DNA of 64,000 nucleotides from Candidatus Doudnabacteria bacterium (GCA_963837465.1 CAWINB010000001.1:629646-693645); one strand, 5' to 3'. Shown: positions 16,891-43,185, counted from the stretch's first letter. The notes: generated by a model not told the origin, from the sequence alone. Translations and numbers: made by a program.

Positions 16891-18330
16891 AGTCTTATAC
16901 AATGGAACATGGCCCCTATCTTTGAGACAGCCTCTAAAGGAGGACGGTACCCCAATTGCTGAAACCGGAGGGTTGCCCGGAAGCTGTACAAAGAGCATAA
17001 GCCTGCCACACTGACTTGATGACAATCGATATGACAGACTTAAGCGTTACGAGCATAGCTCAAATCAAGGAATTTCTAAAGGTCAATACAGCAATTAATT
17101 TTACCTCAGTTTCCAGAAAGGAGAAATATGAATGGATTAACAACGTCTTAAACAAGTTTGGCTATGTCCGGCTTAAAGGCAAAAAAGACAAGGGGCAGAT
17201 TAAGGAATATATCCAACGGATGACCGGCATGTCGGGCAGACAGCTAAAACGACTGATTACCAACAAGAGAGGAAGTGGGTTAGTGGCCTTGTCCCCGAAT
17301 TGGGGCAAGAAAAACCGGTTTGTTACTGTTTATGGCCCGGCAGAAATACTATTGCTGGCTGAAACCGATAATCTGCACCAACGAATGAATGCCCATGCCA
17401 CCAAACAGATCCTAATGGCTGAATATGAAATATTCGGTGACGAACGGTTTAAAAGACTAAAAGATATTTCCGTTTCCCATATCTACAATCTGCGAGTTAA
17501 AAGAATTTACACCAGCCACTCCACCACCTTTACCATAACCGATCCAGTAAGCACCCCGATTGGTATTAGAAGAAGACCCGACAATATGGGCATTCCGGGC
17601 TATCTGCGGGTGGATACCGTGCATCAGGGCGACCGTAAGCTGGCTTTGGGCAAGTATGAGAAAGGTATTTACCACTTAAACCTGGTGGATGAAGTCACCC
17701 AATGGGAAATGGTCTTCTGTGTGGAAACGATTTCCGAGCTGCATTTAAAACCCATATTTGAACAGTTGCAGCAAATGTTTCCCTTTACAGTAATTAACTT
17801 CCACTCTGACAACGGTAGCGAGAACATTAATTACACGGTAGCTGATATTCTTAGAAGGTTAGTTATTAAACAGACAAAATCACGAAGCAGGCACTGCAAT
17901 GACAATGCCTTAGTGGAAAGCAAGAACGGCAGTGTCATCAGAAAGTATATGGGCTACACTCATATCCCGAAAACCTACGCGCAGGAGATTAACGAATTTT
18001 ACCAGAAGTTTTTTAACCCTTACCTGAACTTCCACAGACCCTGCGGCTTTGCCACCACCACGGTTGACCATAAGGGCAAGGAAAAGAAAAAATATGATAT
18101 TTACTTAACTCCCTATGCCAAACTGAAGACTCTGGATAATTGGACACGCTACCTTGCCCCAGGACGGACGGAAAAACAACTGGATGACATCAGCACCGGC
18201 CACAGCCATAACGGATGGGCAAAACTTATGCAGGAAGCAAAGTCAGCAGTATTTAAAAACATTAAACTTAAGGAACATCAAAAAATGGCCGCTGGCGGAT
18301 AGGGGCCATGTCTTGATTAGAAACTACTTC
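16891..18330 (+). mobile_element. IS element copy 1 (1440 bp) encoding a DDE/rve-type transposase
   Basis: Its ends were found by comparison with the inverted copy at 41746-43185. Identity starts at agtcttatacaatggaacatggcccctatc and ends at ...ggggccatgtcttgattagaaactacttc. Both termini share the imperfect inverted repeat acatggcccctatc. Confidence 0.8.
17016..18302 (+). CDS. DDE-type (integrase-core/rve) transposase of the IS
   Basis: 428 aa. N-terminal HTH region, HSDNGSE, and RHCNDNALVESKNGSVIRKY (the D..E catalytic region of rve-family transposases). Protein identical to 41774..43060. Confidence 0.8.
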   Translation: MMTIDMTDLSVTSIAQIKEFLKVNTAINFTSVSRKEKYEWINNVLNKFGYVRLKGKKDKGQIKEYIQRMTGMSGRQLKRLITNKRGSGLVALSPNWGKKNRFVTVYGPAEILLLAETDNLHQRMNAHATKQILMAEYEIFGDERFKRLKDISVSHIYNLRVKRIYTSHSTTFTITDPVSTPIGIRRRPDNMGIPGYLRVDTVHQGDRKLALGKYEKGIYHLNLVDEVTQWEMVFCVETISELHLKPIFEQLQQMFPFTVINFHSDNGSENINYTVADILRRLVIKQTKSRSRHCNDNALVESKNGSVIRKYMGYTHIPKTYAQEINEFYQKFFNPYLNFHRPCGFATTTVDHKGKEKKKYDIYLTPYAKLKTLDNWTRYLAPGRTEKQLDDISTGHSHNGWAKLMQEAKSAVFKNIKLKEHQKMAAGG

Positions 18331-18358
18331 AGGCCGCCACCTCAACTGGCAAAACCGT

Positions 18359-19063
18359 AGTGTCAAGGGTGACCCTTGACACTACTCTTCTTCAAAGACT
18401 AAATCGGCAAAAATTAAGTGCTCCGGTTTATAGTTTTTTAACAAAAAACTTTTATAATTTACAGACGTTAGCTTATTTGTATCCATAAATATTTGGGGAT
18501 TGGCCAAACCATTATTTTCTTGGCCTAAATAAACAGCCATACTGGAATATTTCCATTCAAAGGGTTGCAGGGGGTTCAAATGTATGTAAGCAATAAGCTG
18601 CGTTAAGTAACTGTCATTCAAGACATTTTTGCTTTTATAAATTCCTTGAAAAATATGCCCCGAATGGCCGTATTTTTTATTAAAATATGATGAATAAGAA
18701 GTACACAGCCTATGCAAAAATATTTTAAGCCCGTTGACTTGGTTTTGTTTAACTAAAAAATGAAAATGGTTTGGCATTAAGCAATAACTTAAAATCTCCA
18801 ATCCCATTGCAGGCAAAGGTTTCAAGCGAATACTGCCTTTGGCGCTGCGCTTTGGCAACGGCAACAAACCAAGCAGCAACTTAGCCCTGTATATAAAATT
18901 TAGGTAATCTTGTTCATCCAAAAATATAAGCGCTTTATTTGCTCCCCTATTATAAGCGTGGAAATAAGCGCCGACAAAATTTGGTTTATAATCCCTTCCA
19001 ATCATGGCTTAATTATAAAGGAATTTGACACCAAGTCAAGTGTCAAGGGTGACCCTTGACACT
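18359..19063 (-). mobile_element. IS200/IS605-like (RAYT-type) element with identical terminal hairpins
   Basis: A perfect 25 nt hairpin agtgtcaagggtgacccttgacact sits at 18359-18383 and again at 19039-19063, flanking a Y1 transposase gene. Confidence 0.75.
18382..19005 (-). CDS. Y1 (HUH) transposase, IS200/REP-associated tyrosine transposase family
   Basis: 207 aa. HUH motif CLMPNHFHFLV and catalytic-Tyr region LIAYIHLNP. Confidence 0.75.
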   Translation of the reverse strand: MIGRDYKPNFVGAYFHAYNRGANKALIFLDEQDYLNFIYRAKLLLGLLPLPKRSAKGSIRLKPLPAMGLEILSYCLMPNHFHFLVKQNQVNGLKIFLHRLCTSYSSYFNKKYGHSGHIFQGIYKSKNVLNDSYLTQLIAYIHLNPLQPFEWKYSSMAVYLGQENNGLANPQIFMDTNKLTSVNYKSFLLKNYKPEHLIFADLVFEEE

Positions 19064-20506
19064 TCTGACGACAATCGCGTTTCGGGCGGGGCCGGTGCCG
19101 ACCAGTAGGATGGGGGTTTTAAGACGTTTTTCCAAACGGGATAAAAAGTTTCGCGCGGCTTTGGGCAAGTTTGGCTCTTGATCAATGCCGCCGATATTTT
19201 GCGGCCACCCCGGCCACTGCTCAAAAACCGGCTTAACATCCGCCAGCTCCCACGGCGGCGGCATTTGTCCCGGCCTCAAAAGCTTGCCCTTAAGTTTATA
19301 GCCAACGACCACGGGGATTGTTTTTATTCCCGAAAGCATATCAAACCGCGTTAAAGCCAGCCACTTGGGGCCGTTTACTCGGATGGCGTAATGCAGCCAA
19401 GGAATGTCTAAAAAACCCAGGGACCGCCCGCGACCCGTAGTGGCTCCCCGCTCGTCCCCCAAGACCTGAAAGTATTGCGAAGCTTCCGCGTTTGAGGCTT
19501 GCCCTTTGTTGATTTTTAACAACCTTTGGGACAAAAAGTCCGCGCGTTTGTCTGTGTTGGCAATAAACAGCTCACCGTTATTTTTGGCAAATTCCATTAC
19601 CGCGCTTCTTTCCCACATTTCCGACGGCATGGGACCCGAGCCCACGCGCGTAGGCAAAATTTTGACTACCATTAAAGTGGCGCTGAATTTCCCCATGGGC
19701 AAGCCCGTTCCCAAAGCCGCGCCGGAAGCGGCGGAGTTACCGGCCGAGACAAAAGGATAAGTGCCCCAGTGGGAATCCAAACCCAGCGCCTGCGCGCCTT
19801 CAAACAGTATCCGTTTACCGGACCTGGCAGCCTGGTCCAAAAAATAAGCGGTGTCGGCTATTATCGGCTTAACCCGCGGGGCGGCCAAAAGCAACTGCCG
19901 CGAAACTTGTTTGGGCGGCGGAATTTTTTCCCCGGCGGCAAATGCCCGCAAAATCGGCAGCAGCATTTTATACAAAACTTCCAGGGATTCTTCCAGCAAC
20001 TTGGGTTCCCGCAAATAACCGACAACCGGCCCGAGCCGCAATTTATACAAAGCTTCCAAAGGCGCGATACCTTTATTGGTTGTGCCGATTTTTTTTGCGC
20101 CGCGCAACTCCTCTACGTAACTTTCCAAAAGGCCGTGGTAAGGCGTCCATACAGGCGACTGGTAATCTATATAAATCGGCGGCAGATTATTTTCCCCCAA
20201 AATCCGCCTTGAATGTTCAAGTTCGGCCAAAAACAATTCCAGGTTAAAAAATTCCCCCCTGCCGAGCACGCAAATTTTGCCCTGAGCCAGGCCGCAGGGA
20301 ATTAAATGACTGACCAATTTTTTCCCGTCCGGCGTAAACACCGTATGGCCGGCGTTGGCGCCGCCGGAAAAGCGCGCCGTCACATCGTAATGCGCCATTA
20401 TTAAATCTATAATTTTGCCTTTGCCCTCATCCCCCCAATTGGCCCCGACTACAATTAAATTCGGCGCGTCTTTAAAAATAGATTTTAGCTTAACGGCAGT
20501 TATCAT
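19043..20506 (-). CDS. purA: Adenylosuccinate synthetase, with its last 6 codons supplied by the IS200-type hairpin
   Basis: 487 aa. VVGANWGDEGKGK P-loop, GGANAGHTV, and GTTNKGIAP. The C-terminal ...SVKGHP* is encoded by the hairpin at 19043-19063. Confidence 0.85.
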   Translation of the reverse strand: MITAVKLKSIFKDAPNLIVVGANWGDEGKGKIIDLIMAHYDVTARFSGGANAGHTVFTPDGKKLVSHLIPCGLAQGKICVLGRGEFFNLELFLAELEHSRRILGENNLPPIYIDYQSPVWTPYHGLLESYVEELRGAKKIGTTNKGIAPLEALYKLRLGPVVGYLREPKLLEESLEVLYKMLLPILRAFAAGEKIPPPKQVSRQLLLAAPRVKPIIADTAYFLDQAARSGKRILFEGAQALGLDSHWGTYPFVSAGNSAASGAALGTGLPMGKFSATLMVVKILPTRVGSGPMPSEMWERSAVMEFAKNNGELFIANTDKRADFLSQRLLKINKGQASNAEASQYFQVLGDERGATTGRGRSLGFLDIPWLHYAIRVNGPKWLALTRFDMLSGIKTIPVVVGYKLKGKLLRPGQMPPPWELADVKPVFEQWPGWPQNIGGIDQEPNLPKAARNFLSRLEKRLKTPILLVGTGPARNAIVVRSVKGHP

Positions 20507-20715
20507 AAATATATGATAGCGTCTTTCGTCTCATATTAAAAGCCCCCGGTTTTTTCCGGAGGCTTTAACTATCGCGACACTACTACTAACCTTTAACACT
20601 TAAGTTAATAGAGATGTTAATCAAAAATGCTTGATTTTACAGAGTTTGCGACACATCTGATTATTAAGCTATGTGTTAAAGGTCAGTAATATAATTTTCC
20701 ATTCTATCCTCACCC

Positions 20716-23700
20716 CTACGGCACCTCGTCAATAGTCGGATACTGGCCGCCGCAGTAGAACTGCAGCACCGGGGTATTGCCAGTAACCACAATGCTACCG
20801 CTATTGGCGGACAGGGAGAAACTGTTCTGGAAGCGGGAACTGGTGGAGCAGGACCCGCCGGAAACCGCCAGCGTGGCATCGTAGGTTAAAAAGGATTTGC
20901 CGCCCTGGGCTACGGAGTAGCCGCTTAAGTTAACGCTTAGCGTCTGGTTGGGCGCGGTGCCGGTAAGGCTGTACTGGCCGCTGGCCGGATTGGATCCGAC
21001 TTGTATCAGGGCCGTGCCATTGTACTTGACGTTCCAGCCAGCGTTCGGCACGCTTAAGTTAAGCATGCTGTCGGTCAGGCTTAATTTGGTGGCGGTGGCC
21101 TGTCCCTGGTCATTGCATAAATCAATCCTAAAGCTTAACGTGTCTCCCAAATTTAAGTTTGTTCCCGAAGGCAGGGCCGCAAAGCCGTTACACTGGCTGG
21201 GAACCGGGCTGATGGCGTTGCCGCTGATGGCCACAATGTTTTTTGAGGAATCCGTCATAACGGCGGTACAGGCAACCGAAGAGTAAGGGTTGCCGGTTTC
21301 GGCAACCTGGGCCGAAGTACCGTTGCCATTGGTGGCGGCCACGCTGTAGCTGTGGGGGTTGTTGTCAGGCGGGGTGAAGTTGTAAGTTAAGACCTCGCCT
21401 GTCTGGGAAGGCGGAGAACTGGCCGGGACGGTTGTCTGATAAACTCCGTCCATATATATCTTAAAGCCGGTCTCGTTGGTGGAATTATCCGTCCAGGTAA
21501 TCTGGACCTGGCCGCAGGACACGGTACCGCCCGGAGGATTACTGCTGCCGCTGTTGTAGACGCTGCCGCCGGTGGGAGCGGTCGGGCTTTGAGCCACATT
21601 ATTAACCGTTATGTTGGTGTTAAGGGAGTATTGGTTGCCTAAACTGTCAAAGGCTGTAATGGTGATGGTGTGCGGGCCGTTGACCAGAGTCGTGGTGTCA
21701 AAATTGCCGTAAATAAAACCGCAGTTGGAGGAACAGCCCGAAGCCGAATCATTAACCGGATAAAAGGATGGGCTGATGGCGGAATCGGATATTAAGGTAG
21801 AACTGCTGGCTATCCACAGCTGGGCTCTGGTTATGGAAGCGCTGGCCGAAGGCGCTATATAACCTTTAATGTTAATAAGGCCGGAAACCGTGCTGTTGGC
21901 CGCTGGCGTTTCCAAAACTATGTTCGGCGGGCCGTCCACGGTCCAGGTGCCCGTTTGCTGCCAGCCGCTGCCTGCCGTGGCATCGTTGGCGGTCATCCAA
22001 AACTGCTGGGGGCCGACAAACGGCGACAAAAAAGTGTAATTTAAAATTAAAGTAAGATTGCTGCCCGACCTGGAAACGCTGGAGGCGGAAACGTTGGCCG
22101 TACACTGGCTGTTGCTTAAGCTTGCGCCGCTGCCAATGACACTGCCCGTGCTCCAGGCGCTGCCGGAATCATTGAGTAAAAATAGGGAATTAGTGGCGGA
22201 ATCGTAACGCAAATAACAGGCATTGTTGGTGGGATTGGCGGCATAGCTGGACCTTAAAAAGGTCCAAACCTGGGTAATGTCCCCTGCCCCGGCCGTATCG
22301 GTATAGACCTGGGTAAAGCTGGTGCTGCTGGCGACTTCGGAACTGCCGGAAGAAGGAGTTAAAGACGCGGCCGTAATAGTATTAATGACCAGAGAGCTGC
22401 TGACAGGACCGCTGGCCGAACTACAGTTTAAGGTGTAGGTGGTTTGGGCGGCTATGGGCGCGGTGGTATGGCTGGTGGTGGCAATGGCATCGGCCACGCT
22501 GTCGGGATTCTGGTTGTTGGATAACGAGCAGGAACTGACATTAGCGGTAGTCCAAGTCAGGTTGGATGTGCCGCCAAAACTGACCATAACCGAGCTGGCA
22601 GTGGGGGTAACTCCGCCTGTGTTGGTGCCGTACAGCACGGCTGTGGGGATTGTGGAAGAAGCTGTCTGGCTCCAGTTTAAGTAGGCTTGGTCGCCGCCGC
22701 CATCCTGGAAGTATTCATACTTGATGATGTGCTGGCCCGCTCCCAGGCTTACGCTGGCGGTGTTGGTGGCATAGCCCCGCGGATTCCAGTCGCCGGTTAT
22801 GTGGAGGCCATCCACGTAAAGATTGTCGCCATCGTCTGAGCCGGCGGTAAACTGGTAGGTGCCGCCGCTAAAGTTAAAGGTGCCCTGCCAGCGGGCGGAC
22901 CAATTGTCATCCAGGGTCGGATAACTGCCGTTGGAAGTAGCAGGCCCGCCAGCATTCCAGTTTGTGTTAATGGCGGTAAAATTGTCGGCATTGCCGGAAG
23001 CCGTGGCTTGGGCCGGGGCATTGCCGTACTGATTGGTCAAAGTACTGCCATCGGAGTCGTTGTACAAACAGCCAACCAGCTGGTTGGCGCCAGGTCCGGG
23101 CGTGGTGCAGGGAAAGGTGGTGGCCGTGTTATATATAGTTAACTGACTGTATATTTCTGGGGCTGTATAATTAAGATTAGAGCAACCCAGGGTATATACC
23201 GTCGGGCTGTTGTCTATAGGTTGCGTGTCATAGCTCGTATAAACCTGTAGGTTGCCGTAGGGGTCCTGATCTCCATGGTCGCTAGTAAGATTACATAAAC
23301 CATAGCCACTGGGAATGTCCCAGGTCAAAGTTGATGTTCCGCCATAATTAACGGTTACCGAGCCCGCGGTGGGAGTATTACTGCCTGAGTTGGTGCCGTA
23401 AAGAGTTACAACGCCTGCGCACTGATAATTGCAAGTTGAACTAGTATCGCAATGGCCGGGACCGCCATAACCTGTACAGCTATTGTCTGCGCTGCAACTG
23501 CCACTGTTGCAGGAGTAATAGGTGGTGCCACCGTTGTTGCCGCTTCCACAGACATTACTGCAAGTTGAACTAGTATCGCAACTACCGGGACCGCCATAAC
23601 CGTTACAGCTATTGTCTGCGCTGCAACTGCCACTGTTGCAGGAGTAATAGGTGGTGCCGCTGCCACTGCCGTTGCCACTGCTTCCAGATGAGCAATCAAC

Positions 23701-24048: not shown

Positions 24049-24674
24049 GGCTGTGGTTGAGACATAGTTACTGTTATAACAGTACCGGAAGTCTGCTGTG
24101 AATTGCCAGCAGTTAATATCTCTATAAAATCCTTATTGGTTTTTGTATTGAGAGCGGCCAACTGAGTGGAACTGTTGAATTGCCCGGGCAACAATGCCCA
24201 ATTATTTGCCAGGAAATAGTTCTTATAGACCGCAAGAACACTGCTGACTGAACTGGAGCTCACAAACTGGAATGTTGACTGCTTTGTCCAAGAAGCGCCA
24301 TTGCCGGGCATCTTAACAAGCATAGACATACTCTGTGTAATCTGATGGGAGGCGGACAATACCGGAAAACCAACCGGAAAAGACGGCGGCAAGGTATTGT
24401 TGCTGTATGCCTGAAAATTAGAAATGGGAATACTGGTGGCAACAGTGGAAGAATGATTGTTTTGAGTTTGGTTTTTTGGAGCAGACGTAACCAAAGGCTT
24501 TACCGGTTTTTGCTTATTAAAAAATGTAAAACCGTACCATCCAAGCGCAAGAATAACTACCAAGATACCCACAGCCCAAAGCCAAACTTTCGGCTTTTTT
24601 GAATTAGTTGGAGGAAGCGGAGTTACAAGCTGTTGGCCAATCTCGGCAGGTTGAGAATTTAACTGTTCGTTCAT
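24045..24674 (-). CDS. Membrane-anchored hypothetical protein, paralogue of 27093..27611
   Basis: 209 aa with an N-terminal TM. A C-terminal domain containing YKNYFLANNWALL is shared with the 27093 protein (YQTYFAKNGWKIL). Its ATGA start overlaps the stop of the PA14 gene. Confidence 0.45.
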   Translation of the reverse strand: MNEQLNSQPAEIGQQLVTPLPPTNSKKPKVWLWAVGILVVILALGWYGFTFFNKQKPVKPLVTSAPKNQTQNNHSSTVATSIPISNFQAYSNNTLPPSFPVGFPVLSASHQITQSMSMLVKMPGNGASWTKQSTFQFVSSSSVSSVLAVYKNYFLANNWALLPGQFNSSTQLAALNTKTNKDFIEILTAGNSQQTSGTVITVTMSQPQP

Positions 24675-24904
24675 ATTTTATAGGGCTTGAGGTAAATTTT
24701 TATAGATACTTTTGGTTTCTTAACCTAAATATAGGTAATGGGATTGCCACGACATTATATATAAAATAATAGCATTAAATAAAAATAAGTCAAAATGGAT
24801 GTCAAAATGTTTAAAAATGCCTACTTATACAAAATGAAACCGCCGACCCATACCCTGCTAGTGGGGTACGTTTCGACGGTTTCGAGGTGTAAAGAGAAGA
24901 AGGG

Positions 24905-26151: not shown

Positions 26152-26942
26152 GAAAAAGGGGTCAGGAGCTGTTTTTAGGACGCCCTGGTTTTCGCAAAGA
26201 AGATTTCAAACCTAGATCGCTTGCGGTTTTGTGTACCCATTGCTCATTTCCTAAAGGACGATTTTTAATTATTGACCGTCTTATGTTTTCAACTTCTGTT
26301 TTGGACTGAACTGAATTGACCAACAATAAATAATCCTTACCAGGTGGTATCGGCCAAGAACTCAATAACTGCTTCTGTTCTTCATCTCCTTGTTCCCTAA
26401 TCCACAAGCTCCCCCACTGCCAATCTTGGGCTTTGTCCACTAACTTTGCCCTAAGGGGGTTCCTTTCCACATATCTGGTTAATTGCAAAAAATATTCATC
26501 AGACTCAACCGGGAAAGATTTATATCTGCCTTGATACAAATGGCCGCTGCCTACGGTATGGTGTGCCGCATGCCATCTCTGGGCATGTGTCATGGTCAAC
26601 CAGGCCATAGCCTTTGACAAGACACCATTTTGGAAAGGCTTTAAAATTAAATGCCAATGATTTGGCATAATACAAAAAGCCAAAAGCTCTACCGGAAACT
26701 TTTTCTTTGCTTCCGTTAGGACTTCTATAAAAGCTTGATAATCCTTTTCTCTACGAAAAATGGCCAGCCGACCATTGGCACGATTAATCGTGTGATAAAT
26801 AATGTCAGCAACGTCTACTCTGGGAGGCCTAGGCATGCCTTTATAGTTTTAATGGTTCCATTAAAACTATAAAGGCATGCTGATGAAAATTATTTAAAAA
26901 ATAATTAAAAACTTTATACATAATAGCTCCTGACCCCTTTTC
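26152..26942 (-). mobile_element. Second IS200/RAYT-type element with terminal inverted repeats and a 23 bp-stem internal hairpin
   Basis: aaaaggggtcaggagct at 26152-26168 pairs with agctcctgacccctttt at 26926-26942. A long hairpin gcatgcctttatagttttaatgg tt ccattaaaactataaaggcatgc lies at 26828-26877. Confidence 0.7.
26162..26836 (-). CDS. Y1 (HUH) transposase, IS200/RAYT family (second, divergent copy)
   Basis: 224 aa. HUH motif CIMPNHWHLIL and catalytic-Tyr region LTRYVERNP. Confidence 0.7.
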   Translation of the reverse strand: MPRPPRVDVADIIYHTINRANGRLAIFRREKDYQAFIEVLTEAKKKFPVELLAFCIMPNHWHLILKPFQNGVLSKAMAWLTMTHAQRWHAAHHTVGSGHLYQGRYKSFPVESDEYFLQLTRYVERNPLRAKLVDKAQDWQWGSLWIREQGDEEQKQLLSSWPIPPGKDYLLLVNSVQSKTEVENIRRSIIKNRPLGNEQWVHKTASDLGLKSSLRKPGRPKNSS

Positions 26943-31746: not shown

Positions 31747-31757
31747 TGAGAGCCTGT

Positions 31758-32441: not shown

Positions 32442-33563
32442 CTAAGGGTGAAGATTTTGGGTAATGCCGTAAATGGGCATAATTATAGACACGGCCACAA
32501 ACCCGACTATTAATCCCATAAATATCATCAACACCGGTTCAATGACCGTGGACAGATTTTTGGTTAAATCCCCCAGTTCGTCTTCGTACATAGCCGACAA
32601 ATACAGCAGCCCCGAACTCAGACTGCCGGCTGTTTCGCCCACGCTGATCATTTGCGCCATAACGGACGGGAAAATTTTGGGATGCTCCAGCATATGCGCC
32701 GACAGCTTCTGGCCTTTTAAAATTTTATCGGCCAATATCAGCAGGTGGTTTTTATAAACCTGGTTCTGCGCCGCGCCCGCCGCGATGCGCGCCGCCTCCT
32801 CCAGCCGCACATCGCTTTTAAGCAGCAGCCCCAAAGTCCGGCAAAAATTGGCCAGACAATAGCTTTGCAGCATCCGGCCCAAAAAAGGCAGACGCAAAAC
32901 CAACCGGTCAAAACGTCGTTTTACGTAACTTTTCCGAAGCAGGAACCCGGCGGCAAAAAAAGCCGCGGCCAGGGAAATTAAAATATACGGCCAGCGGCCG
33001 GAAATAAAATTGCTGATAAAAATCAGCGCCCGGGTGGACAAGGGCAGGCGGGTGCTAAAACTTTGAAAAATCGGCAGAATCTTTGGCAGCACATAAACCG
33101 CCAGCAGCCCGGCAATGCCAAATGTCGCAACCACTATCACCGCCGGATAAACCAGGGCGGAAACAACCTTCCTTTTCAGCTCCCGGTTCTTTTTCAGTTC
33201 TTCGGCCAGATAGCTGAGGTTTTCGCCCAAGGTGCCGCTGACTTCGCCGATTCGCACAATATTAAGGGCAAAGCCGCCGAACACGGACGGGAACTTGGAC
33301 ATGGCCGATGATAAAAACTGGCCGTTGTTGACTTCGGCGACAATGGACCGCAGAATCCGCCCGCTGGCCCTGGAGCCGGATTGAGCCGCCATCATTGTCA
33401 GCGCCTGGACAATAGGCGCCCCGGCCTCTATAAGCACAGCCAGGCGTTTGGCGAATAAAATCCGTTCCTGGGAATTAAGGCGCAAAAAATATTTATCCAG
33501 CAATTGATCACGGACCAAAAAAATATTTTTGAGCCGGACGAAAAAAAATTGTTTTTTAATCAT
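32442..33563 (-). CDS. GspF/PilC-family platform protein (second copy; ComGB-like)
   Basis: 373 aa. Two GspF repeats (LAVLIEAGAPIVQAL...; ...SVMAQMISVGETAGSL) and three TM segments. Confidence 0.8.
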   Translation of the reverse strand: MIKKQFFFVRLKNIFLVRDQLLDKYFLRLNSQERILFAKRLAVLIEAGAPIVQALTMMAAQSGSRASGRILRSIVAEVNNGQFLSSAMSKFPSVFGGFALNIVRIGEVSGTLGENLSYLAEELKKNRELKRKVVSALVYPAVIVVATFGIAGLLAVYVLPKILPIFQSFSTRLPLSTRALIFISNFISGRWPYILISLAAAFFAAGFLLRKSYVKRRFDRLVLRLPFLGRMLQSYCLANFCRTLGLLLKSDVRLEEAARIAAGAAQNQVYKNHLLILADKILKGQKLSAHMLEHPKIFPSVMAQMISVGETAGSLSSGLLYLSAMYEDELGDLTKNLSTVIEPVLMIFMGLIVGFVAVSIIMPIYGITQNLHP

Positions 33564-34761
33564 AGGATATCCTCAGAACTTCTTCCAAAGTAGTCAGTCC
33601 GGCCGCGGCTTTGGCCAAACCGTCTTCGGCTAAAACTGCCATACCGGCTTGCCTGGCCAATCCGCTTACGCGCTCAGCCGAAGCTTTTTCCAGCAATGCC
33701 CCGCGAATGGCCGCGTCAGGCGGCAAAACTTCGTGGATGCCCAGACGGCCCAGGTATCCGCTTTGGCCGCAGGCTCCGCAACCCGCGCCTTTGTAAAAAT
33801 CCCCGGCTGTTTCCATGGGCAAAGTTTTACGCAAGCTCGCCAGCGCCGCCTTGCTTATTTGGGTTTTAGTTTTACAATTTTCACAAATTTTTCTGGCCAG
33901 ACGCTGGCCGATAACCAAACTTAAAGTGGAACTCAGCAGATAAGGCTCCACTTTCATATCCAGCATCCGCGGCAGGGTGGAGGCGGCGTCATTGGTATGC
34001 AGGGTGGACAGCACCAGGTGGCCGGTTAAGGCCGTGTTCACGGCCAGGGCTGCCGTATCGCTGTCGCGGATTTCGCCGACCATGATAATGTTGGGATCCT
34101 GCCTTAAGATACTGCGCAGGCCGTTGGCGAATGTTAAGCCGGTTTTGGGATTAACCTGAATTTGCTCAATGCCGGAAATCGCGTACTCAATCGGGTCCTC
34201 CACGGTAATAATGGCCGCCTCTTTGGTATTTAACTGTTTAATTAAAGTATATAAAGTCGTGGTTTTGCCCGAGCCGGTGGGACCGGTGATTAAAATTAAG
34301 CCGTGCGGCCGGCGCAGGGCGTTTTGGATTTTTAGCAGATTGCCTTCCGAAAAACCCAAGCTACCCAAACCAAAATCCTCGGCCTTGTCGCCAAGCAACC
34401 GCAGCACCGCGTTTTCGCCGTAGTAAGTCGGGGCCACGGACACGCGCACGTCCACGGGCTGGCCCGTGCTGAGGTTAAGCCGGAAACGTCCATCCTGCGC
34501 GGCCTGATGTTCGTCGGTGCGCAAACCCGCCAAAATTTTAATCCGGCTGATAATGCCGCTTTGCATTTGCCTGGGGCAAAAATGCGCGTCCCTGAGCACT
34601 CCGTCCACGCGGTAGCGGACGCGGATATCATTATTTTGGGGATGAAAGTGCACGTCCGAAGCGCGCGAAACATAGGCCTCGCAAATCAGCTCCTGCACCA
34701 AATTGATCATGGAAGCGCCATCCCCTTTTGCCAATTCCTCCTTAATTTTGTCTTGAGCCAT
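33556..34761 (-). CDS. GspE/PilB-family secretion ATPase lacking the N1 domain (ComGA-like)
   Basis: 401 aa. GPTGSGKTTTLYT, VEDPIEY, GEIRD, TLHTN, and the tetracysteine CENC...CGACGQSGYLGR. Confidence 0.85.
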   Translation of the reverse strand: MAQDKIKEELAKGDGASMINLVQELICEAYVSRASDVHFHPQNNDIRVRYRVDGVLRDAHFCPRQMQSGIISRIKILAGLRTDEHQAAQDGRFRLNLSTGQPVDVRVSVAPTYYGENAVLRLLGDKAEDFGLGSLGFSEGNLLKIQNALRRPHGLILITGPTGSGKTTTLYTLIKQLNTKEAAIITVEDPIEYAISGIEQIQVNPKTGLTFANGLRSILRQDPNIIMVGEIRDSDTAALAVNTALTGHLVLSTLHTNDAASTLPRMLDMKVEPYLLSSTLSLVIGQRLARKICENCKTKTQISKAALASLRKTLPMETAGDFYKGAGCGACGQSGYLGRLGIHEVLPPDAAIRGALLEKASAERVSGLARQAGMAVLAEDGLAKAAAGLTTLEEVLRISYD

Positions 34762-35582: not shown

Positions 35583-35586
35583 AATT

Positions 35587-35898: not shown

Positions 35899-35905
35899 AA
35901 GAATA

Positions 35906-38813
35906 TTATAACACCTTTTTTAAATACTGCCCGGTGTAACTGGCTTTAACTTTCGCCACGTCCTCCGGCGTGCCGGCGGCGACGAGCTGGCCGCCTTTGT
36001 CGCCGCCTTCGGGACCGAGGTCTATTAGCCAGTCCGCGGTTTTTATCATATCCAGGTTGTGTTCAATAACCACAACTGTATTGCCTTTGTCCACCAGTTT
36101 ATTTAAGACCTGCACCAGGCGCTTAACATCGGCAAAGTGAAGGCCCGTGGTCGGCTCATCAAGCAAATACAAAGTGCGGCCGGTGGAAGTGCGGGACAAT
36201 TCCGTGGCCAGTTTAATTCTCTGCGCTTCACCGCCGGAAACCGTGGTGGCGTTTTGCCCAAGGCGCATATAACCCAAACCTACTTGCGAGAGTGTTTCCA
36301 GTTTTTTGTGGATCATCGGCAGGTTGGCGAAAAATATTTTGGCTTCGTCTACGGTCATTTCCAAAACATCGGAAATGGTTTTGTCTTTGTAATGGATTTC
36401 CAGAGCCTGCTGGTTGTAGCGTTTGCCGTGGCATTCTTCGCAGGTAATGTAAACGTCCGGCAAAAAATTCATTTCCACTTTAATGACGCCGTCGCCCGCG
36501 CACTTTTCGCAGCGGCCGCCTTTTACGTTAAAACTAAAGCGTCCGGCCCGGTAGCCGCGCATGCGCGCTTCTTTGGTGTCCGCAAATAAATCGCGGATGG
36601 GAGTGAACAAGCCGGTGTAAGTGGCCGGATTGCTGCGCGGGGTGCGGCCGATCGGCGACTGGTCTATGTTTATGATTTTGTCTATGTGTTCAATGCCGGT
36701 AATTTTTTTATGTTTGCCCGGCTGTTCCTTGCTGTTGTAAAAATATTTGGACAGCGCCGTGGCTAAAATATCATGAAAAAGCGTGGATTTGCCGCTGCCG
36801 GAAACGCCGGTCACGCAGACAAATTTACCCAGCGGAATGTCCACGTTAATATCCTTTAAGTTAAACTCCTCGGCGCCTAAAATTGACAGCTTCCTGCCGT
36901 TGCCCGGACGGCGACGCTTGGGAATTTCCACAAATTCCTTGCCCGAAAGATACTGTCCGGTAATGGATTTCGGGTCTTTTTCAATGGCCTTGGGCGTGCC
37001 CTGCGCCACCAATTCCCCGCCATGCTTGCCGGCTCCGGGGCCAATATCCACCACCCAATCAGCCTCGCGGATGGTTTCTTCATCGTGCTCCACCACAATT
37101 ACCGTATTACCCAAATCCCTTAAATCTTTTAAAGTTTGGAGCAGGCGGCTGTTGTCGCGCTGATGCAAACCAATAGAGGGCTCGTCTAATATATAGAGGA
37201 CGCCGGTTAGGCCGGAGCCGATTTGCGTGGCCAGGCGGATGCGCTGAGCTTCGCCGCCGCTTAAAGTGTCCGCCGCCCTGTCTAAAGATAAATAAGAAAG
37301 TCCCACGTTCAGCAAAAACGACAGGCGCGCGTTGATTTCCTTAAGCACCTGTTTGGCAATGGCCAAATCTCTCTGGTTTAAATTTTTTGCTAAAAATTTA
37401 AAATAATCCGACGCAAGCTCTATATTCATCGCCGACACGTCAACAATCCCTTTGCCGCCCACAGTGACGGCCAGGACTTCGGCCTTAAGGCGCTTTCCAA
37501 GGCATTCCGGGCAGCGCCTTACGCGCATATAGTTTTCAATTTCACCGCGCATGTATTCGGAATCGGTTTCGCCGTAGCGGCGTTCCAGGTTGGGAACCAC
37601 GCCTTCAAAAGCCGTGTTCATTTCAAACTCGCCTTCACCCGAGCGGAATTCGCCGGAGACCCGGATTTTTTTATCGCCCGTGCCGTACAAAATTATATCA
37701 ATATATTTTTTGGGAAATCTTAAACCGGCGTGTTCAGGGAAAAACCGTACTCCTTGGCCACGGCCTGCAAAATTCTGCTGTACCACGACAGTCGCGAGGT
37801 GGTTTTGCTCCAGGGACGGATGGCGCCTTCGGCCAAAGTCAGTCTCTGGTTGGGCATAACCAAATCCGGCTCCACGGTCAATTTGTGGCCAAGACCCTTG
37901 CATTCCGGACAGGCGCCGTGCGGGCTGTTGAAACTAAAATCCCTCGGATCCAGCTCCGCCAGTTGCATATGGCCGTCGGGACAGGCGAATTTTTGGGAAA
38001 GGACAATATCCTGCGCGCTGTAGCGGCATGCCTGGGCGTGCCGTCTTTGGAAGGCGCGCCAGGGCGTGCCTCTGCATTATTTTTATCATCAAAAGGCAAA
38101 GCCATGGCAATCCCGTCCCCCAAATCCAAAGCCTTTTCCAAACTTTCCGACAGCCTGCCTTTATCGGCCGGGTCAATGACCAGGCGGTCCACCACTACAT
38201 CTATAGAATGTTTTTTCTGTTTGTCCAAATTTACGTTTTGGGCTTCGTTTAAATCCATAACCGTGCCGTCCAAACGCACGCGGGCGAAACCGGCTTTTTT
38301 TATCTGCTCAAAAATAACTTTATGCTCGCCTTTTTGGTCTTTAATGAACGGCGCCAGCAAAATAATCCTGCTGCCGGGTTTAAGCGACAATAGCTGTTCC
38401 ACCATGGCGGCAATGGTCTGTCCCTGGATTTTTTTGCCGCAAACCGGACAGTGCGGCTGGCCGATGCGCGCCCAAAGCAGACGCATATAATCGTAAATTT
38501 CGGTTACGGTGCCGACGGTGGAACGCGGGTTGTGGCTGGCGGATTTTTGGTCGATGCTGATGGCCGGAGATAATCCTTCTATTTTATCCACGTCCGGCTT
38601 GTCCATTAGGCCAATAAACTGGCGGGCGTAGGCGGACAGGGATTCCACATACCGGCGCTGGCCCTCGGCGTAAATAGTATCAAACGCCAAAGACGACTTG
38701 CCGCTGCCGGACAAGCCTGTCATTACAATCAGTTTATTCCGCGGCAAATCCACATCCAAATTCTTTAAATTGTGCTGCCGCGCCCCGCGGATGGAAATAA
38801 TGTCTTTAGGCAT
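35906..38813 (-). pseudogene. uvrA: Excinuclease ABC subunit A (uvrA) split over three reading frames by at least two frameshifts
   Basis: Frame a (37878..38813) is correct from [19 protein letters not shown]...[23 protein letters not shown] up to ...[21 protein letters not shown]. Frame b (37720..37968) carries ...[20 protein letters not shown].... Frame c (35906..37903) is correct from about [18 protein letters not shown]... onward and includes the second ABC module ([36 protein letters not shown]). The junctions are near 38030-38100 and 37720-37740. Confidence 0.75.
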
Positions 38814-38976
38814 AAAGCTACAGAACTACAAAAAAATAATCACACTACAGAAAACTACGGAATAACTGCAGTCCCTTTTGTAGGCATCTGTAGTGTTCCC
38901 ATTGCAGTTTTTTGTAGTCACAAACTGGTAAAAATTGTATCACGTCTGTCAAGAGAGGGCAAGGGGTATGGCAGAA

Positions 38977-39006
38977 CAATTGACGATTAACAATTAACAA
39001 TTGACT
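38977..39006. promoter_or_regulatory. Conserved 22-mer caattgacgattaacaattaac (followed by aattgac) upstream of uvrA, identical to the motif at 2669-2690
   Basis: Exact string match between two loci 36 kb apart. Both are 5' of minus-strand genes. Confidence 0.6.
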
Positions 39007-39072
39007 TTAGCTGCCCACGATGCTGGGTAAAAGAAAAGGCCGGGCGCTAAACCTAGCCAAAATCAGCTAAAT

Positions 39073-39645
39073 TTAGCGCTCGGCGCTGGTATGAACTCCG
39101 GTTTGCCGGGCTTGTAGGAGCCAGTGAAGCACTCTGGGTGCCGACAAGCAAAGCGAATAAGAAACGTAGACCGCTGCGGCAACCAAAAATAAGCCGAAGC
39201 ATACGTACGCGGGCGTTAAGCCCGCAGGTTTTTTATTCGCACACCTCCTTAATTGCCTTTTCACTTCATCTAATTCTTTGTTTTTCAGAGGGAACACTGT
39301 CTTGGCTAGATCAAGCACCCAACCCCACAGGACCAAACCTATGGGAAAGGCGATGATTAAAATCAGGGCAAATACTTGTACCCTGACCCTCTGGCAGGCG
39401 GTTCGCACTTTATACGCCGCCCACTGCTCTCTTCTCCACCAGGCAATGACGCGAAGAAGAATTAAGACAAAAACAAGTACAGCAGAAAACCACTCCGCCG
39501 CCTGGAAACTCCCCAACACCTGGGGAGGGTGCTTCCAATCCGATAGCGTCATCGTCCTCCTTACCCGCACCCAAAAGTGCAGTCCGCATTCAGCACAGGG
39601 GCTGGATGTACCTGCTGGCCAGCGGCGAAAGCCACAGATAGCCAC
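39073..39645 (-). CDS. Hypothetical small membrane protein (start uncertain, likely internal at MTLSDWKHPP)
   Basis: GC-rich ORF with two or three hydrophobic segments. It overlaps an alternative 68 aa ORF at 39561..39767. The coding call is weak. Confidence 0.25.
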   Translation of the reverse strand: MAICGFRRWPAGTSSPCAECGLHFWVRVRRTMTLSDWKHPPQVLGSFQAAEWFSAVLVFVLILLRVIAWWRREQWAAYKVRTACQRVRVQVFALILIIAFPIGLVLWGWVLDLAKTVFPLKNKELDEVKRQLRRCANKKPAGLTPAYVCFGLFLVAAAVYVSYSLCLSAPRVLHWLLQARQTGVHTSAER

Positions 39646-39827
39646 AAGGCAATCGCCGCAACAACTATAAACCCGCCAAATACACTAAAAAAGAACCCAT
39701 CTTCTTCGTCCTCACAATCGTCATCCTCGGTCAAACCGAGAAACATCAAGTTGGAATTCATAACCACCTCCGCCCATAAATTAGCAATTTATAGACATCA
39801 AGTCAAACGACGGATATAATTGTATTT

Positions 39828-41678
39828 ATGGAAGTAAAAAATTCCAATCTTAAATACAAAATCCAAAATATTCCCAAACTTCCCGGCGTTTACCAGTTTT
39901 TAAATAAAGATGGCGGGGTTATTTATGTTGGGAAGGCCAAAAATTTACGGTCGCGGGTTGGGCAGTATTTTGGCAGCCACGACAGCCGGCCGCAGTTGCC
40001 TTATTTAATGCGCGAGGCGGCGGATATAAATTACACTGTGGTTAACAACGAACTGGAAAGTTTGTTTTTGGAAAACACGCTCATTAAGCAATACCTGCCC
40101 AAATACAACATTAGCCTGCGCGACGATAAAAACTATGCTTTTATTAAAATAAGTTATTCAACGCAGATTCCTCAGATTGGCTACGCTAGGAAGATTGATG
40201 GCAAGTCAAACGTAAAAGGCCAATTGTCAAATGTTACCAAATATTTTGGACCATATAGCTCGGCCCACAAAATTCGCGATACGCTCCACACTATAAGAAA
40301 AATCTTTCCCTATTGCGCCTCCGAAAAAATCGGCAGCCGCCCCTGCTTTTACTATTACCTGCACCGCTGCCCGGGTGTTTGTATTGGCAAAATTACCTTA
40401 GATGAATATAAACTACAATTGGAAAAAATAGTAAAGTTTTTGCAGGGCGATATGGACGGGGTAACAGGGGAAATTAAAAAAGAAATGCAAAGAGCGGCCA
40501 AAAACAAAAAGTACGAAACCGCCGCGCGCCTGCGCGACCAGTTAAGGGGCCTGGAAATTTTGCGCGAAAGGCAAAACGTGATACTGCCCAAAAAAGTGGA
40601 TTGGGACCTGGTGTCGCTGGCCACGCAAAGCGGCTACGCCTGTATTAACCTGTTTAAAATTAGGGGCGGCAAAATGTTTGACAAGGAAAATTTTGTTTAC
40701 GAAATAAAATATGAATCTTCGGACGTTTATGGACAGGAAATAATACAAAGGTTTTTGGAACAATACTACCTGGAAACTTCCAGCTCGCCCAAATGCGTTT
40801 ACATCCAGTTGCCCGCGCGGGACAGTGAATTAATCAGCCACATTATTTTTTCGCGCTTCGGCAAAAAATCGGATGTTATAAATCCCCAAAAAGGCAAACC
40901 AAGGGACTTGGTTAAACTTGGGCAGGCCAACGCCGGGGAATATCTAAAAAAATGGCTTAGCGACAAAGCCGGCAATTTGGACAAAATTAACAACGCGTTG
41001 TTAAAGCTAAAAGAAACTTTAAATCTGCCGCGTATTCCCAAACGGATTGAATGCTACGATATTTCCAACACGCAGGGCACAAACGCCGTGGGCAGTATGG
41101 TAGTTTTTATAGAGGGTCTTCCGGCTAAAAGCCAATACCGCAAATTTAAAATAAAAACTAAACAAACACCCGACGATTTTGCCATGATGAAGGAGATGCT
41201 GTCGCGGAGACTGCGGAGAATAAAGAATAAGGAATTAGGAATTATGGAAAAGACCGCTTGGCCGCTGCCCGATCTTATTGTAATAGACGGAGGCAAAGGC
41301 CAGTTGGGAGCAGTGTCTTCCGTAATTCAAAATTCAAAATTCAAAATTCCCGCAATAGGATTGGCTAAGCGCATTGAGGAAATTTTTCTGCCCGGCAAGC
41401 CTGAGCCAATTATCCTGCCGCGCGACAATCCTGGCCTGCAGCTCCTGCAAAGACTGCGCGATGAAGCCCACCGTTTTGGCATAACTTTCCACCGAAGCCT
41501 GCGCTCCAGGCAAGCCGTAAAATCGGCCCTGGACGATATTTCGGGCATCGGCCCCAAAACCAAAAAACTCCTGAAACAAAGATTCGGCACTGTCTTTGAA
41601 ATTAAAAAAGCCGATGCCGAAGAGCTGGCAAAAGTTGTGGGAAAAAAACTAGCGCGGACCATAAAACAGAATCTGTAA
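39828..41678 (+). CDS. uvrC: Excinuclease ABC subunit C
   Basis: 616 aa. N-terminal GIY-YIG (GVYQFLNKDGGVIYVGKAKNLRSRV), UvrBC-interaction region, RNase-H-like endonuclease domain, and C-terminal HhH (ISGIGPKTKKLLKQRFG). Confidence 0.9.
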   Translation: MEVKNSNLKYKIQNIPKLPGVYQFLNKDGGVIYVGKAKNLRSRVGQYFGSHDSRPQLPYLMREAADINYTVVNNELESLFLENTLIKQYLPKYNISLRDDKNYAFIKISYSTQIPQIGYARKIDGKSNVKGQLSNVTKYFGPYSSAHKIRDTLHTIRKIFPYCASEKIGSRPCFYYYLHRCPGVCIGKITLDEYKLQLEKIVKFLQGDMDGVTGEIKKEMQRAAKNKKYETAARLRDQLRGLEILRERQNVILPKKVDWDLVSLATQSGYACINLFKIRGGKMFDKENFVYEIKYESSDVYGQEIIQRFLEQYYLETSSSPKCVYIQLPARDSELISHIIFSRFGKKSDVINPQKGKPRDLVKLGQANAGEYLKKWLSDKAGNLDKINNALLKLKETLNLPRIPKRIECYDISNTQGTNAVGSMVVFIEGLPAKSQYRKFKIKTKQTPDDFAMMKEMLSRRLRRIKNKELGIMEKTAWPLPDLIVIDGGKGQLGAVSSVIQNSKFKIPAIGLAKRIEEIFLPGKPEPIILPRDNPGLQLLQRLRDEAHRFGITFHRSLRSRQAVKSALDDISGIGPKTKKLLKQRFGTVFEIKKADAEELAKVVGKKLARTIKQNL

Positions 41679-41745
41679 AATTGCAGGCAGCGCAAAAACT
41701 GCCTACTGTTGATCCTGCCATGGTTTAAATTTCTCAGGCGCCCGA

Positions 41746-43185
41746 GAAGTAGTTTCTAATCAAGACATGGCCCCTATCCGCCAGCGGCCATTTTTTGATG
41801 TTCCTTAAGTTTAATGTTTTTAAATACTGCTGACTTTGCTTCCTGCATAAGTTTTGCCCATCCGTTATGGCTGTGGCCGGTGCTGATGTCATCCAGTTGT
41901 TTTTCCGTCCGTCCTGGGGCAAGGTAGCGTGTCCAATTATCCAGAGTCTTCAGTTTGGCATAGGGAGTTAAGTAAATATCATATTTTTTCTTTTCCTTGC
42001 CCTTATGGTCAACCGTGGTGGTGGCAAAGCCGCAGGGTCTGTGGAAGTTCAGGTAAGGGTTAAAAAACTTCTGGTAAAATTCGTTAATCTCCTGCGCGTA
42101 GGTTTTCGGGATATGAGTGTAGCCCATATACTTTCTGATGACACTGCCGTTCTTGCTTTCCACTAAGGCATTGTCATTGCAGTGCCTGCTTCGTGATTTT
42201 GTCTGTTTAATAACTAACCTTCTAAGAATATCAGCTACCGTGTAATTAATGTTCTCGCTACCGTTGTCAGAGTGGAAGTTAATTACTGTAAAGGGAAACA
42301 TTTGCTGCAACTGTTCAAATATGGGTTTTAAATGCAGCTCGGAAATCGTTTCCACACAGAAGACCATTTCCCATTGGGTGACTTCATCCACCAGGTTTAA
42401 GTGGTAAATACCTTTCTCATACTTGCCCAAAGCCAGCTTACGGTCGCCCTGATGCACGGTATCCACCCGCAGATAGCCCGGAATGCCCATATTGTCGGGT
42501 CTTCTTCTAATACCAATCGGGGTGCTTACTGGATCGGTTATGGTAAAGGTGGTGGAGTGGCTGGTGTAAATTCTTTTAACTCGCAGATTGTAGATATGGG
42601 AAACGGAAATATCTTTTAGTCTTTTAAACCGTTCGTCACCGAATATTTCATATTCAGCCATTAGGATCTGTTTGGTGGCATGGGCATTCATTCGTTGGTG
42701 CAGATTATCGGTTTCAGCCAGCAATAGTATTTCTGCCGGGCCATAAACAGTAACAAACCGGTTTTTCTTGCCCCAATTCGGGGACAAGGCCACTAACCCA
42801 CTTCCTCTCTTGTTGGTAATCAGTCGTTTTAGCTGTCTGCCCGACATGCCGGTCATCCGTTGGATATATTCCTTAATCTGCCCCTTGTCTTTTTTGCCTT
42901 TAAGCCGGACATAGCCAAACTTGTTTAAGACGTTGTTAATCCATTCATATTTCTCCTTTCTGGAAACTGAGGTAAAATTAATTGCTGTATTGACCTTTAG
43001 AAATTCCTTGATTTGAGCTATGCTCGTAACGCTTAAGTCTGTCATATCGATTGTCATCAAGTCAGTGTGGCAGGCTTATGCTCTTTGTACAGCTTCCGGG
43101 CAACCCTCCGGTTTCAGCAATTGGGGTACCGTCCTCCTTTAGAGGCTGTCTCAAAGATAGGGGCCATGTTCCATTGTATAAGACT
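41746..43185 (-). mobile_element. IS element copy 2 (1440 bp), inverted relative to copy 1
   Basis: Nucleotide-identical to 16891-18330 in reverse complement. The flanking sequence diverges immediately outside both ends. Confidence 0.8.
41774..43060 (-). CDS. DDE-type (rve) transposase, identical to 17016..18302
   Basis: The 428 aa protein is identical to the copy-1 transposase. Confidence 0.8.
   Translation of the reverse strand: MMTIDMTDLSVTSIAQIKEFLKVNTAINFTSVSRKEKYEWINNVLNKFGYVRLKGKKDKGQIKEYIQRMTGMSGRQLKRLITNKRGSGLVALSPNWGKKNRFVTVYGPAEILLLAETDNLHQRMNAHATKQILMAEYEIFGDERFKRLKDISVSHIYNLRVKRIYTSHSTTFTITDPVSTPIGIRRRPDNMGIPGYLRVDTVHQGDRKLALGKYEKGIYHLNLVDEVTQWEMVFCVETISELHLKPIFEQLQQMFPFTVINFHSDNGSENINYTVADILRRLVIKQTKSRSRHCNDNALVESKNGSVIRKYMGYTHIPKTYAQEINEFYQKFFNPYLNFHRPCGFATTTVDHKGKEKKKYDIYLTPYAKLKTLDNWTRYLAPGRTEKQLDDISTGHSHNGWAKLMQEAKSAVFKNIKLKEHQKMAAGG

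Follow-up and report, generated by a model that had tools for sequence, protein, structure and literature searches.

The locus and its two insertion sequence copies

The window examined here is a 64,000-nucleotide stretch of a Candidatus Doudnabacteria bacterium assembly (GCA_963837465.1, CAWINB010000001.1:629646-693645), taken from a contig of 699,532 bp, and all positions are counted from its first letter. It carries two inverted copies of one insertion sequence (IS), the first between purA and guaB and the second between uvrC and secG. The explanation that we favor, and hold as a whole with considerable confidence, is that the window records two independent insertions of one 1438-bp IS in a Patescibacteria chromosome, and the flanks of these and other copies indicate that the targets of the IS are host sigma-70-type promoters. 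The copies and the segment between them are as follows, where TSD stands for target-site duplication and ORF for open reading frame.

16891-18328, plus strand: IS copy 1, 1438 bp, ends 5'-AGT...ACT-3', delimited by identity with copy 2 and with the independent contig L047
41748-43185, minus strand: IS copy 2, identical to copy 1, with its junction in contig L046
17019-18302, plus strand: transposase gene of copy 1, 427 aa from the ATG at 17019; the ORF opens with a TTG at 17016
41774-43057, minus strand: transposase gene of copy 2, identical to that of copy 1
16886-16890, plus strand: left TSD of copy 1, TCAGG, read from the sequence
18329-18333, plus strand: right TSD of copy 1, TCAGG, read from the sequence
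41743-41747, plus strand: TSD of copy 2 on the uvrC side, CGAGA (TCTCG in IS orientation), read from the sequence
43186-43190, plus strand: TSD of copy 2 on the secG side, CGAGA, read from the sequence
18329-41747, no strand: segment between the copies, 23,419 bp, in ancestral orientation, with an IS200-like unit, purA, PA14, Y1, CAP, the pilus cluster, the split uvrA and uvrC

A repeat search of the window returned a single long inverted pair, and base-by-base comparison found its members identical over 1441 bp (16890-18330 on the plus strand and 41746-43186 on the minus strand), with unrelated flanks outside this block. These results bear out the claim of an earlier note on this DNA that two base-identical copies lie in inverted orientation; its extent of 1440 bp (16891-18330 and 41746-43185) was essentially right, although the identical block is 1441 bp long and the element itself 1438 bp. 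To set the boundaries, we aligned the ends with those of relatives in other genomes, whose protein is about 80% identical, and with 19 metagenomic contigs sharing the left end. The alignment gave a conserved element start, AGTCTT, and a conserved end, (A/C)TACT, and hence a length of 1438 bp in the window. The ends AGT and ACT were found in the window copies and in every relative examined. The terminal inverted repeats are imperfect: both ends carry ACATGGCCCCTATC, and they are asymmetric, with a 2-nt indel and an outer 17-19 nt that differ. The window has four occurrences of this 14-nt subterminal motif, one per IS end (chance expectation 0.36), and the search with it found no further IS copies or remnants in the 64 kb.

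Contigs assembled independently agree with this delimitation. Contig L047 (run ERR10755945) is exactly 1438 bp long and 100% identical to the delimited IS, contig L046 reproduces the uvrC-side junction ACT-TCTCG-GGCGCC, and contig L009 reproduces the guaB-side junction. The identity of the copies, from which the earlier note deduced recent transposition, fits that reading, with gene conversion between the copies as an alternative; both insertions are probably recent.

L047 measures 1438 bp rather than the 1441 bp that the window copies share. Since this repeat contig stops at 1438 bp, its length hints at the presence in that sample of at least one further copy with a different duplication. The same transposase was also found on an 868,218-bp contig.

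Target-site duplications

With the boundaries corrected, a perfect 5-bp direct repeat was found at each window copy. The earlier note had reported no obvious TSD, which was wrong: the duplications were missed because its boundaries were 1-2 bp off, owing to the coincidence that both TSDs read TCnnG in IS orientation. The same coincidence explains why identity between the copies extends 3 bp past the IS. Matched 5-bp TSDs, with the IS boundaries unchanged, were also found at five other independent insertions (L010, GTTCC; L021, ATACC; L024, TCGGA; L004, CCATT; L005, GCGCA), so that such a duplication was seen at seven insertions in total.

Promoter targeting across insertions

Directly beyond the TSD at the left end of each window copy lies a promoter, which is followed by the gene that it would serve.

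16857-16885, minus strand: guaB promoter, TAGACA-N17-TATACT, 10/12 in a consensus scan, -35 hexamer directly after the TSD
15364-16824, minus strand: guaB, IMP dehydrogenase (IMPDH, E 1e-158), downstream of the promoter targeted by copy 1
43191-43220, plus strand: secG promoter, TTGACA-N18-TATAAT, 12/12 in a consensus scan, -35 hexamer directly after the TSD
43262-43486, plus strand: secG, 74 aa (37.5 bits with Pfam SecG, over the cut-off), first gene after the copy 2 promoter

At both copies the IS has its left end exactly 5 bp upstream of the -35 hexamer, and the guaB ATG is 67 nt from the start of the TSD. The orthologous promoters are present in relatives that lack the IS: TTGACG-N17-TAAACT for guaB (L034), and TTGACT-N18-TATAATGC...ATTTTATGTTTTC (L044) and TTGACT-N18-TATAAT (L043) for secG. 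The copies are inverted because the left end always faces a promoter, with guaB read leftward and secG rightward. The inverted geometry is thus a by-product of target choice, and the right ends face the 23.4-kb segment.

We collected 21 unique, independent left flanks from metagenomes and read them outward from the IS. The target logo consists of 5 variable nt, TTGACA, a 17-nt unconserved spacer in which G is enriched at -14, and TATAAT. The consensus base was found at the six -35 positions in 21 (T), 18 (T), 19 (G), 16 (A), 18 (C) and 15 (A) flanks, and at the six -10 positions in 17 (T), 18 (A), 16 (T), 14 (A), 16 (A) and 20 (T). The pattern TTGACA-N16-18-TATAAT was then scored at every offset from the IS end, with at least 9/12 as the threshold. 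With the -35 hexamer placed at precisely offset 5, 19/21 left flanks reached this threshold (mean 10.3/12, against a background of about 4.5/12). The 3/21 matches at offset 6 are the same promoters, moved one base over through the spacer tolerance, and no other offset gave a match of at least 9/12 in the 21 left flanks; at offset 5 of the right flanks there was none (0/11). The insertion point tracks the -35 hexamer and not the -10 hexamer, as the distance is still 5 bp when the spacer has 16 or 18 nt.

The outward-reading genes include guaB, secG (in L020 as well as in the window), ribosomal protein S1, a tRNA-Gly (L006) and 16S rRNA (L025), and it is because of these downstream genes, including those for tRNA and 16S rRNA, that we take the flanks to be promoters. 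The left end is the end upstream of the transposase gene, so that this gene is divergent from the target gene. Six distant relatives (46-55% identity, one from an Acidobacteriaceae) carry a TTG-containing hexamer at offset 5 with scores of 7-10/12, and two of the six have intact TSDs; the layout in these relatives is the same but weaker.

The motif lies beside the left end in nearly all copies, as would also be the case if it belonged to the element and were an outward promoter at a longer left end. We give this explanation almost no credence: in seven insertions the IS end and the -35 hexamer are separated by a TSD, the 17-nt spacers show no relationship from site to site and differ even between the otherwise identical window copies, the orthologous promoters occur in IS-free relatives, and the repeat contig L047 terminates at AGT and ACT.

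Two other kinds of target were considered and rejected. Targeting of repetitive extragenic palindromes was set aside as the palindrome in the right flank of copy 1 (18357-18385) was found only around the neighboring Y1 transposase gene and belongs to that element. The flanks are also unlike XerC/XerD sites (PMC10132070, Table 8), and a dif-like, hairpin or terminator target was dropped.

Gene order and the origin of the pair

The gene content of the segment between the copies agrees with the description in the earlier note: we found purA, uvrA (frameshifted), uvrC, a cluster of the type IV pilus/ComG-like kind, and surface-type proteins with PA14, CAP and LVIVD domains. That note suggested that a past inversion between the copies had swapped their flanks, and that the four flanks and the synteny with related genomes should be compared; both comparisons were made here. 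In three IS-free relatives (L033, L034 and L035; GuaB 81-82% identical) the order at the left junction is CAP-purA-guaB-guaA(-)...pilM, T2SSE, where purA and guaB share a strand and purA is 108-137 bp upstream. Order and orientation are unchanged in the window, where IS copy 1 and an IS200-like element of 0.7 kb separate purA from guaB. At the right junction, the IS-free relative L044 (UvrC 68% identical) has the order T2SSF(-), T2SSE(-), uvrA(-), uvrC(+), secG(+), SBP_bac_5(+), and L043 has uvrA(-), uvrC(+), an uncalled secG and then the SBP gene. The window again follows the order of the relatives, except that copy 2 separates uvrC from secG. At both of its ends, therefore, the segment adjoins its ancestral neighbors as in IS-free relatives. 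The TSDs are also unswapped, each copy matching itself, and in the swapped pairings TCAGG would face TCTCG in IS orientation, which is a mismatch by eye.

Because the TSDs are unswapped and the gene order is the same as in IS-free relatives, we read these sequences as recording no net inversion of the 23.4-kb segment. It had been reasonable to suppose that a past homologous inversion between the copies swapped the inner flanks, since identical inverted 1.4-kb repeats can recombine and no TSD is apparent when the boundaries are placed 1-2 bp off. The perfect 5-bp TSD of each copy, together with the adjacency and orientation of purA-guaB and uvrC-secG-SBP, refutes that supposition and contradicts any single (odd-numbered) inversion, which we now consider very improbable. 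The statement that inverted copies are a substrate for homologous inversion holds in principle, and the identical copies are plausibly a latent substrate for a future RecA-mediated inversion. The bracketing of the segment by IS copies with their left ends outward gives the look of a composite transposon that arrived as one unit. The earlier note already judged that the cargo argues against this, rightly so: the cargo is housekeeping and core chromosome, with the order and neighbors found in IS-free relatives, and is not mobile relative to its neighbors. The outer flanks (TCAGG and CGAGA) show no common outer duplication, and each IS has its own TSD. Because of this lack of an outer duplication and the core-chromosome cargo, the pair did not transpose as a unit, and the composite transposon can be set aside as extremely improbable. 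Nor do we give more than slight weight to an assembly artefact in which the assembler duplicated or misplaced a single IS locus. The copies are perfectly identical, and short-read assemblies of the same samples break at the IS, as such an artefact would have it; however, the two copies differ in their flanks and each has a TSD of its own, three independent Logan contigs (L009, L046 and L047) agree with the window, and both sites obey the target rule of the IS family.

Transposase and family

The transposase is encoded by a single ORF without a frameshift. The earlier note described a 428-aa DDE transposase, which is the length of the ORF from the TTG at 17016; the start is more likely the ATG at 17019, which gives 427 aa and, judged by sequence alignment, corresponds to the MTLNMTD start of homologues. 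The predicted catalytic residues, numbered from the Met at 17031, are D195 (RVDTVHQGD), D260 (FHSDNGSE) and E296 (NDNALVESKNGSVIRK), and they are invariant in an alignment of 20 homologues. If E296 is assigned correctly, it is followed by the motif ESKNGSVIRK, with I at E+7 and an invariant R at +8 and K at +9.

Pfam recognized only rve in the protein, with an E-value of 3.7e-5 that is below the Pfam cut-off. The NCBIfam models for IS3 (NF033516) and IS481 (NF033577) scored 37.8 bits against a cut-off of 160, over residues 261-341 only, and 30.6 bits against a cut-off of 224, and the two ORFs joined by a -1 frameshift that define IS3 are not present. At E-values up to 0.01-5 the only signals in Pfam and NCBIfam were rve, IS3 and IS481, and none was of the Mutator-like (p-MULT) type. 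A sequence search of solved structures gave no match at E-values up to 1. An AlphaFold model built from the 20-homologue alignment (pLDDT 79.5) matched in Foldseek, over its full length, TnsB of the type V-K CRISPR-associated transposon (429 columns, E 5e-6), followed by the prototype foamy virus integrase, IstA and MuA as the next of the best PDB matches. In the model, the catalytic core is followed by a beta-rich domain and a helical tail, and the N-terminal region is longer than in IS3 and IS481. A separate model of residues 1-165 had only a weak match, to TnsB N-terminal domains (E 0.27). A DNA-binding domain like sigma region 4 was sought and rejected, as Pfam searches up to an E-value of 5 returned nothing relevant. 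The enzyme is, on this modeled fold, best described as an unclassified rve-type DDE transposase whose predicted structure resembles TnsB, and the element has the general features of a DDE insertion sequence, namely inverted repeats, a single DDE gene, a 5-bp TSD and multiple copies.

The family comprises 428 clusters (50% identity) at E<=1e-30 and 2211 at E<=1e-10, and most matches are 1.4-kb metagenome contigs, which are typical of a multi-copy repeat. The matches in named genomes (eight relatives) are mostly metagenome-assembled genomes of Patescibacteria (Saccharimonadales, Doudnabacteria and Uhrbacteria), along with Acidobacteriaceae and Nitrospiria. The closest named relatives of GuaB and UvrC from the window are likewise mostly Patescibacteria/Doudnabacteria, and some are Blastocatellia or Limnocylindria. 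The closest annotated relatives of the transposase are an 'integrase' of a Polaromonas plasmid (44% identity) and rhizobial proteins labelled 'ISNCY family transposase' (24%, sharing the VE.KNG motif). The former (L032; Polaromonas sp. P1-6 plasmid CP087967.1, 509647-511499) is the closest homologue from a cultured organism. This homologue begins where an ORF of 166 aa ends that carries the annotation TniQ family protein; the ORF is either a target gene cut short or a target selector associated with the element. L032 was set aside as evidence on targeting, as its promoter-like match is only 9/12 and no -35 hexamer was clearly seen next to it.

If the two ends of the IS were abutted, as in a circle or tandem dimer, a right-end TTGATT and a left-end TACAAT would lie 17 nt apart (18310-18328 with 16891-16903, and the same in copy 2). 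This hexamer pair is kept in the relatives of about 80% identity and in L005 (TTGACT...TACAAT) and is less clear in other distant relatives. The sequence of the abutted ends suggests a junction promoter that may drive the transposase gene, and copy-out-paste-in transposition.

Comparison with known elements

ISLre2, the TnGBS conjugative elements and the ISKra4 group have been reported to insert 15-17 bp upstream of the -35 hexamer of sigmaA promoters in fixed orientation, and these elements, whose transposases are Mutator-like, have been proposed to contact the RNA polymerase initiation complex (PMC3942029). The IS described here shares with them the oriented insertion upstream of sigma-70-type promoters and a safe-haven strategy that spares genes, as well as asymmetric inverted repeats that are thought to set the orientation. 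By analogy with what has been proposed for ISLre2 (PMC3942029), the asymmetry of the ends is likely to be the basis of the insertion orientation here as well. However, the transposases of ISLre2, TnGBS and ISKra4 are Mutator/IS256-like, whereas the present one has an rve/retroviral-integrase fold, and these are unrelated superfamilies. The distance to the -35 hexamer is exactly 5 bp here, with the TSD abutting it, rather than 15-17 bp; the end that faces the promoter is the left rather than the right; and the hosts are mostly known from Patescibacteria metagenome assemblies, in contrast to the mostly Firmicutes hosts of those elements. We found no rve-type promoter-targeting IS in the literature accessible in full, with ISfinder outside the scope of that search. 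The present element appears to be a convergent variant of promoter-targeted transposition, independent of the Mutator-like elements.

Another comparison is offered by ISAjo2-type elements of the IS1202 family, whose 5-bp TSD abuts the XerC-binding arm of dif/pdif sites (PMC10132070). Both measure about 1.4-1.5 kb, encode one large transposase whose architecture is TnsB-like, and show a 5-bp TSD that abuts a protein-binding site, a fixed orientation, and a second subterminal copy of the inner part of the inverted repeat. The protein, at 427 aa, also falls within the 394-507 aa given for IS1202 and has the same TnsB-like architecture (N-terminal helix-turn-helix, RNase H fold, beta domain and C-terminal domain). 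The targets differ, being the XerC side of dif/pdif in the one case and promoters in the other. Moreover, IS1202 ends in 5'-TGT...ACA-3' and has Q at E+7 (Harmer, Pong and Hall 2023), whereas the present element ends in AGT...ACT and, given the assignment of E296, has I at E+7 and R at E+8. The models used gave no sequence match to ISAjo2-type elements, and Acinetobacter was not among the frequent genera listed in a tblastn search of 72,556 plasmids. With IS3 and IS481 the element has in common the rve catalytic core with an NDNAxxES motif, a short TSD and a possible junction promoter at abutted ends, but its scores are far below the cut-offs, it has a single ORF, and its ends are other than TG...CA. 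The element is not a demonstrable member of IS1202, IS3 or IS481.

A parallel on the same integrase catalytic fold is provided by yeast Ty3 and Ty1. These are long terminal repeat retroelements whose integrase is tethered to RNA polymerase III factors (TFIIIB and AC40), and the tether has been shown experimentally. They resemble the present IS in inserting with near-base precision just upstream of transcription units; they are eukaryotic, and their tether is experimental, whereas here we infer one.

How the promoter may be recognized

The flanks show that the transposase makes a 5-bp staggered cut and that the left end lands exactly 5 bp upstream of the -35 hexamer. The duplicated 5 bp thus abut the -35 box, the transposase gene reads away from the promoter, and the targeting spares coding sequence and core promoter. 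In the mechanism that we propose, the transpososome would dock on the promoter-bound RNA polymerase holoenzyme, at sigma region 4 or the alpha C-terminal domain. This step is drawn from the pattern of sites and from analogy, and on whether the site is found by such docking, beyond a reading of TTGACA alone, our judgment is evenly poised.

The chief alternative is that the transposase reads TTGACA directly and that the -10 hexamer is enriched through the survival of insertions at intergenic promoters in a gene-dense genome. We regard this as less probable than docking, although it is a serious contender: the insertion point is fixed to the -35 and not to the -10 hexamer, the -35 hexamer is conserved more strongly than natural promoters usually show (T1 in 21/21 and C5 in 18/21), and no module for interaction with RNA polymerase was recognized in the transposase. 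However, the -10 hexamer is conserved about as strongly as the -35 hexamer (n=21), and weak -35 sites (TTGCGG, TTGCGC, TTGTAG and TTGCTT) carry a consensus or TG-extended -10 hexamer at the right spacing; poor -35 hexamers with a strong or extended -10 hexamer were seen in L024, L026, L042, L004 and L005. Because of these two observations, we favor recognition of the promoter complex. Holding somewhat short of an even chance, we tentatively propose that the element represents an undescribed IS family of the rve type with a TnsB-like fold, abundant in Patescibacteria (the candidate phyla radiation, CPR), which independently evolved base-precise promoter targeting by holoenzyme docking at the -35 hexamer.

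Several observations weigh against the interpretation as a whole. The N-terminal domain bears no likeness to sigma region 4 or to a known RNA polymerase-binding module, and 2/21 flanks (L026 and L030) fit the promoter consensus poorly. Survival of some insertions and not others could account in part for the enrichment of the -10 hexamer. A matching TSD is absent from four to five metagenomic copies (L001, L002, L017, L023 and L042), which may be chimeras assembled from a multi-copy repeat or may have arisen when copies recombined. As regards the history of the window, which is known from one assembly, an even number of inversions would likewise restore the TSDs and the synteny.

Neighboring features of the window

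An IS200-like unit lies beside copy 1 at 18357-19065. It contains the gene of a 207-aa Y1 (IS200/RAYT-like) transposase (18382-19005, minus strand), and near-identical palindromes, GTAGTGTCAAGGGT.ACCCTTGACACTAC, bracket it at 18357-18385 (perfect) and 19037-19065. Because purA and guaB are directly adjacent in relatives, this unit is a second insertion in their intergenic region. A second Y1 transposase gene was found at 26162-26836.

The uvrA gene is split at 35906-38813 (minus strand) into overlapping ORFs in different frames, of 311 aa (profile positions 3-246) and 665 aa (341-941), and the uvrA of relatives is intact at 949-952 aa; the split gene is either a frameshift pseudogene or a sequencing error. 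Downstream of secG, the SBP_bac_5 (oligopeptide-binding) gene at 43553-45366 was called with 472 aa, whereas relatives have 547-583 aa. The reading frame stays open 5' of the called ATG, and a junk ORF in another frame spans the missing N-terminus, which suggests a second frameshift.

To the right of copy 2 is a region rich in mobile elements (45601-61530), which encodes a large serine recombinase (45601-47127), an FtsK/TraG-like coupling protein, a Replic_Relax protein and, at 52327-53337, a reverse transcriptase of the group II intron type. The repeats here are nested: the recombinase and a HAD hydrolase gene lie between the arms of a perfect 113-nt inverted repeat (45628-45740 and 48047-48159), a 317-nt inverted repeat of 93% identity lies at 48151-48467 and 60859-61175, and direct repeats of 80-169 nt were found near 45.7, 48.2 and 61.0-61.5 kb. 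The region may represent an integrated element of which one end can invert or is duplicated. Two further repeats involve coding sequence: a tandem 129-bp repeat at 23412-23669 (two copies, 85% identical) lies within the gene for a 1110-aa PA14-domain surface protein, and two diverged T2SSE ATPase paralogues (2739-4496 and 33556-34761) are 70% alike over a 249-nt stretch.

Implications

The pair consists of two clean insertions and is not evidence of a rearrangement; apart from being a latent substrate for inversion, it is structurally ordinary. Promoter targeting by bacterial elements is already known, and the present interest lies in the unrelated transposase superfamily. The flanks of the IS are putative maps of native promoters for uncultivated lineages, and the enzyme could be a possible starting point for promoter-directed insertion tools. 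Given the 5-bp geometry, the IS is inserted where the alpha subunit of the polymerase and activators bind, and a rewiring of regulation may follow. If it is true that the IS docks on the holoenzyme, bacteria would have in it a counterpart of Ty3 with an integrase of the same fold. A second, unrelated transposase superfamily that inserts at a set distance from the -35 hexamer would make promoter targeting a recurrent solution to the problem of transposing in gene-dense genomes, of which those of the CPR, at about 0.7-1 Mb, are an example, without killing the host.

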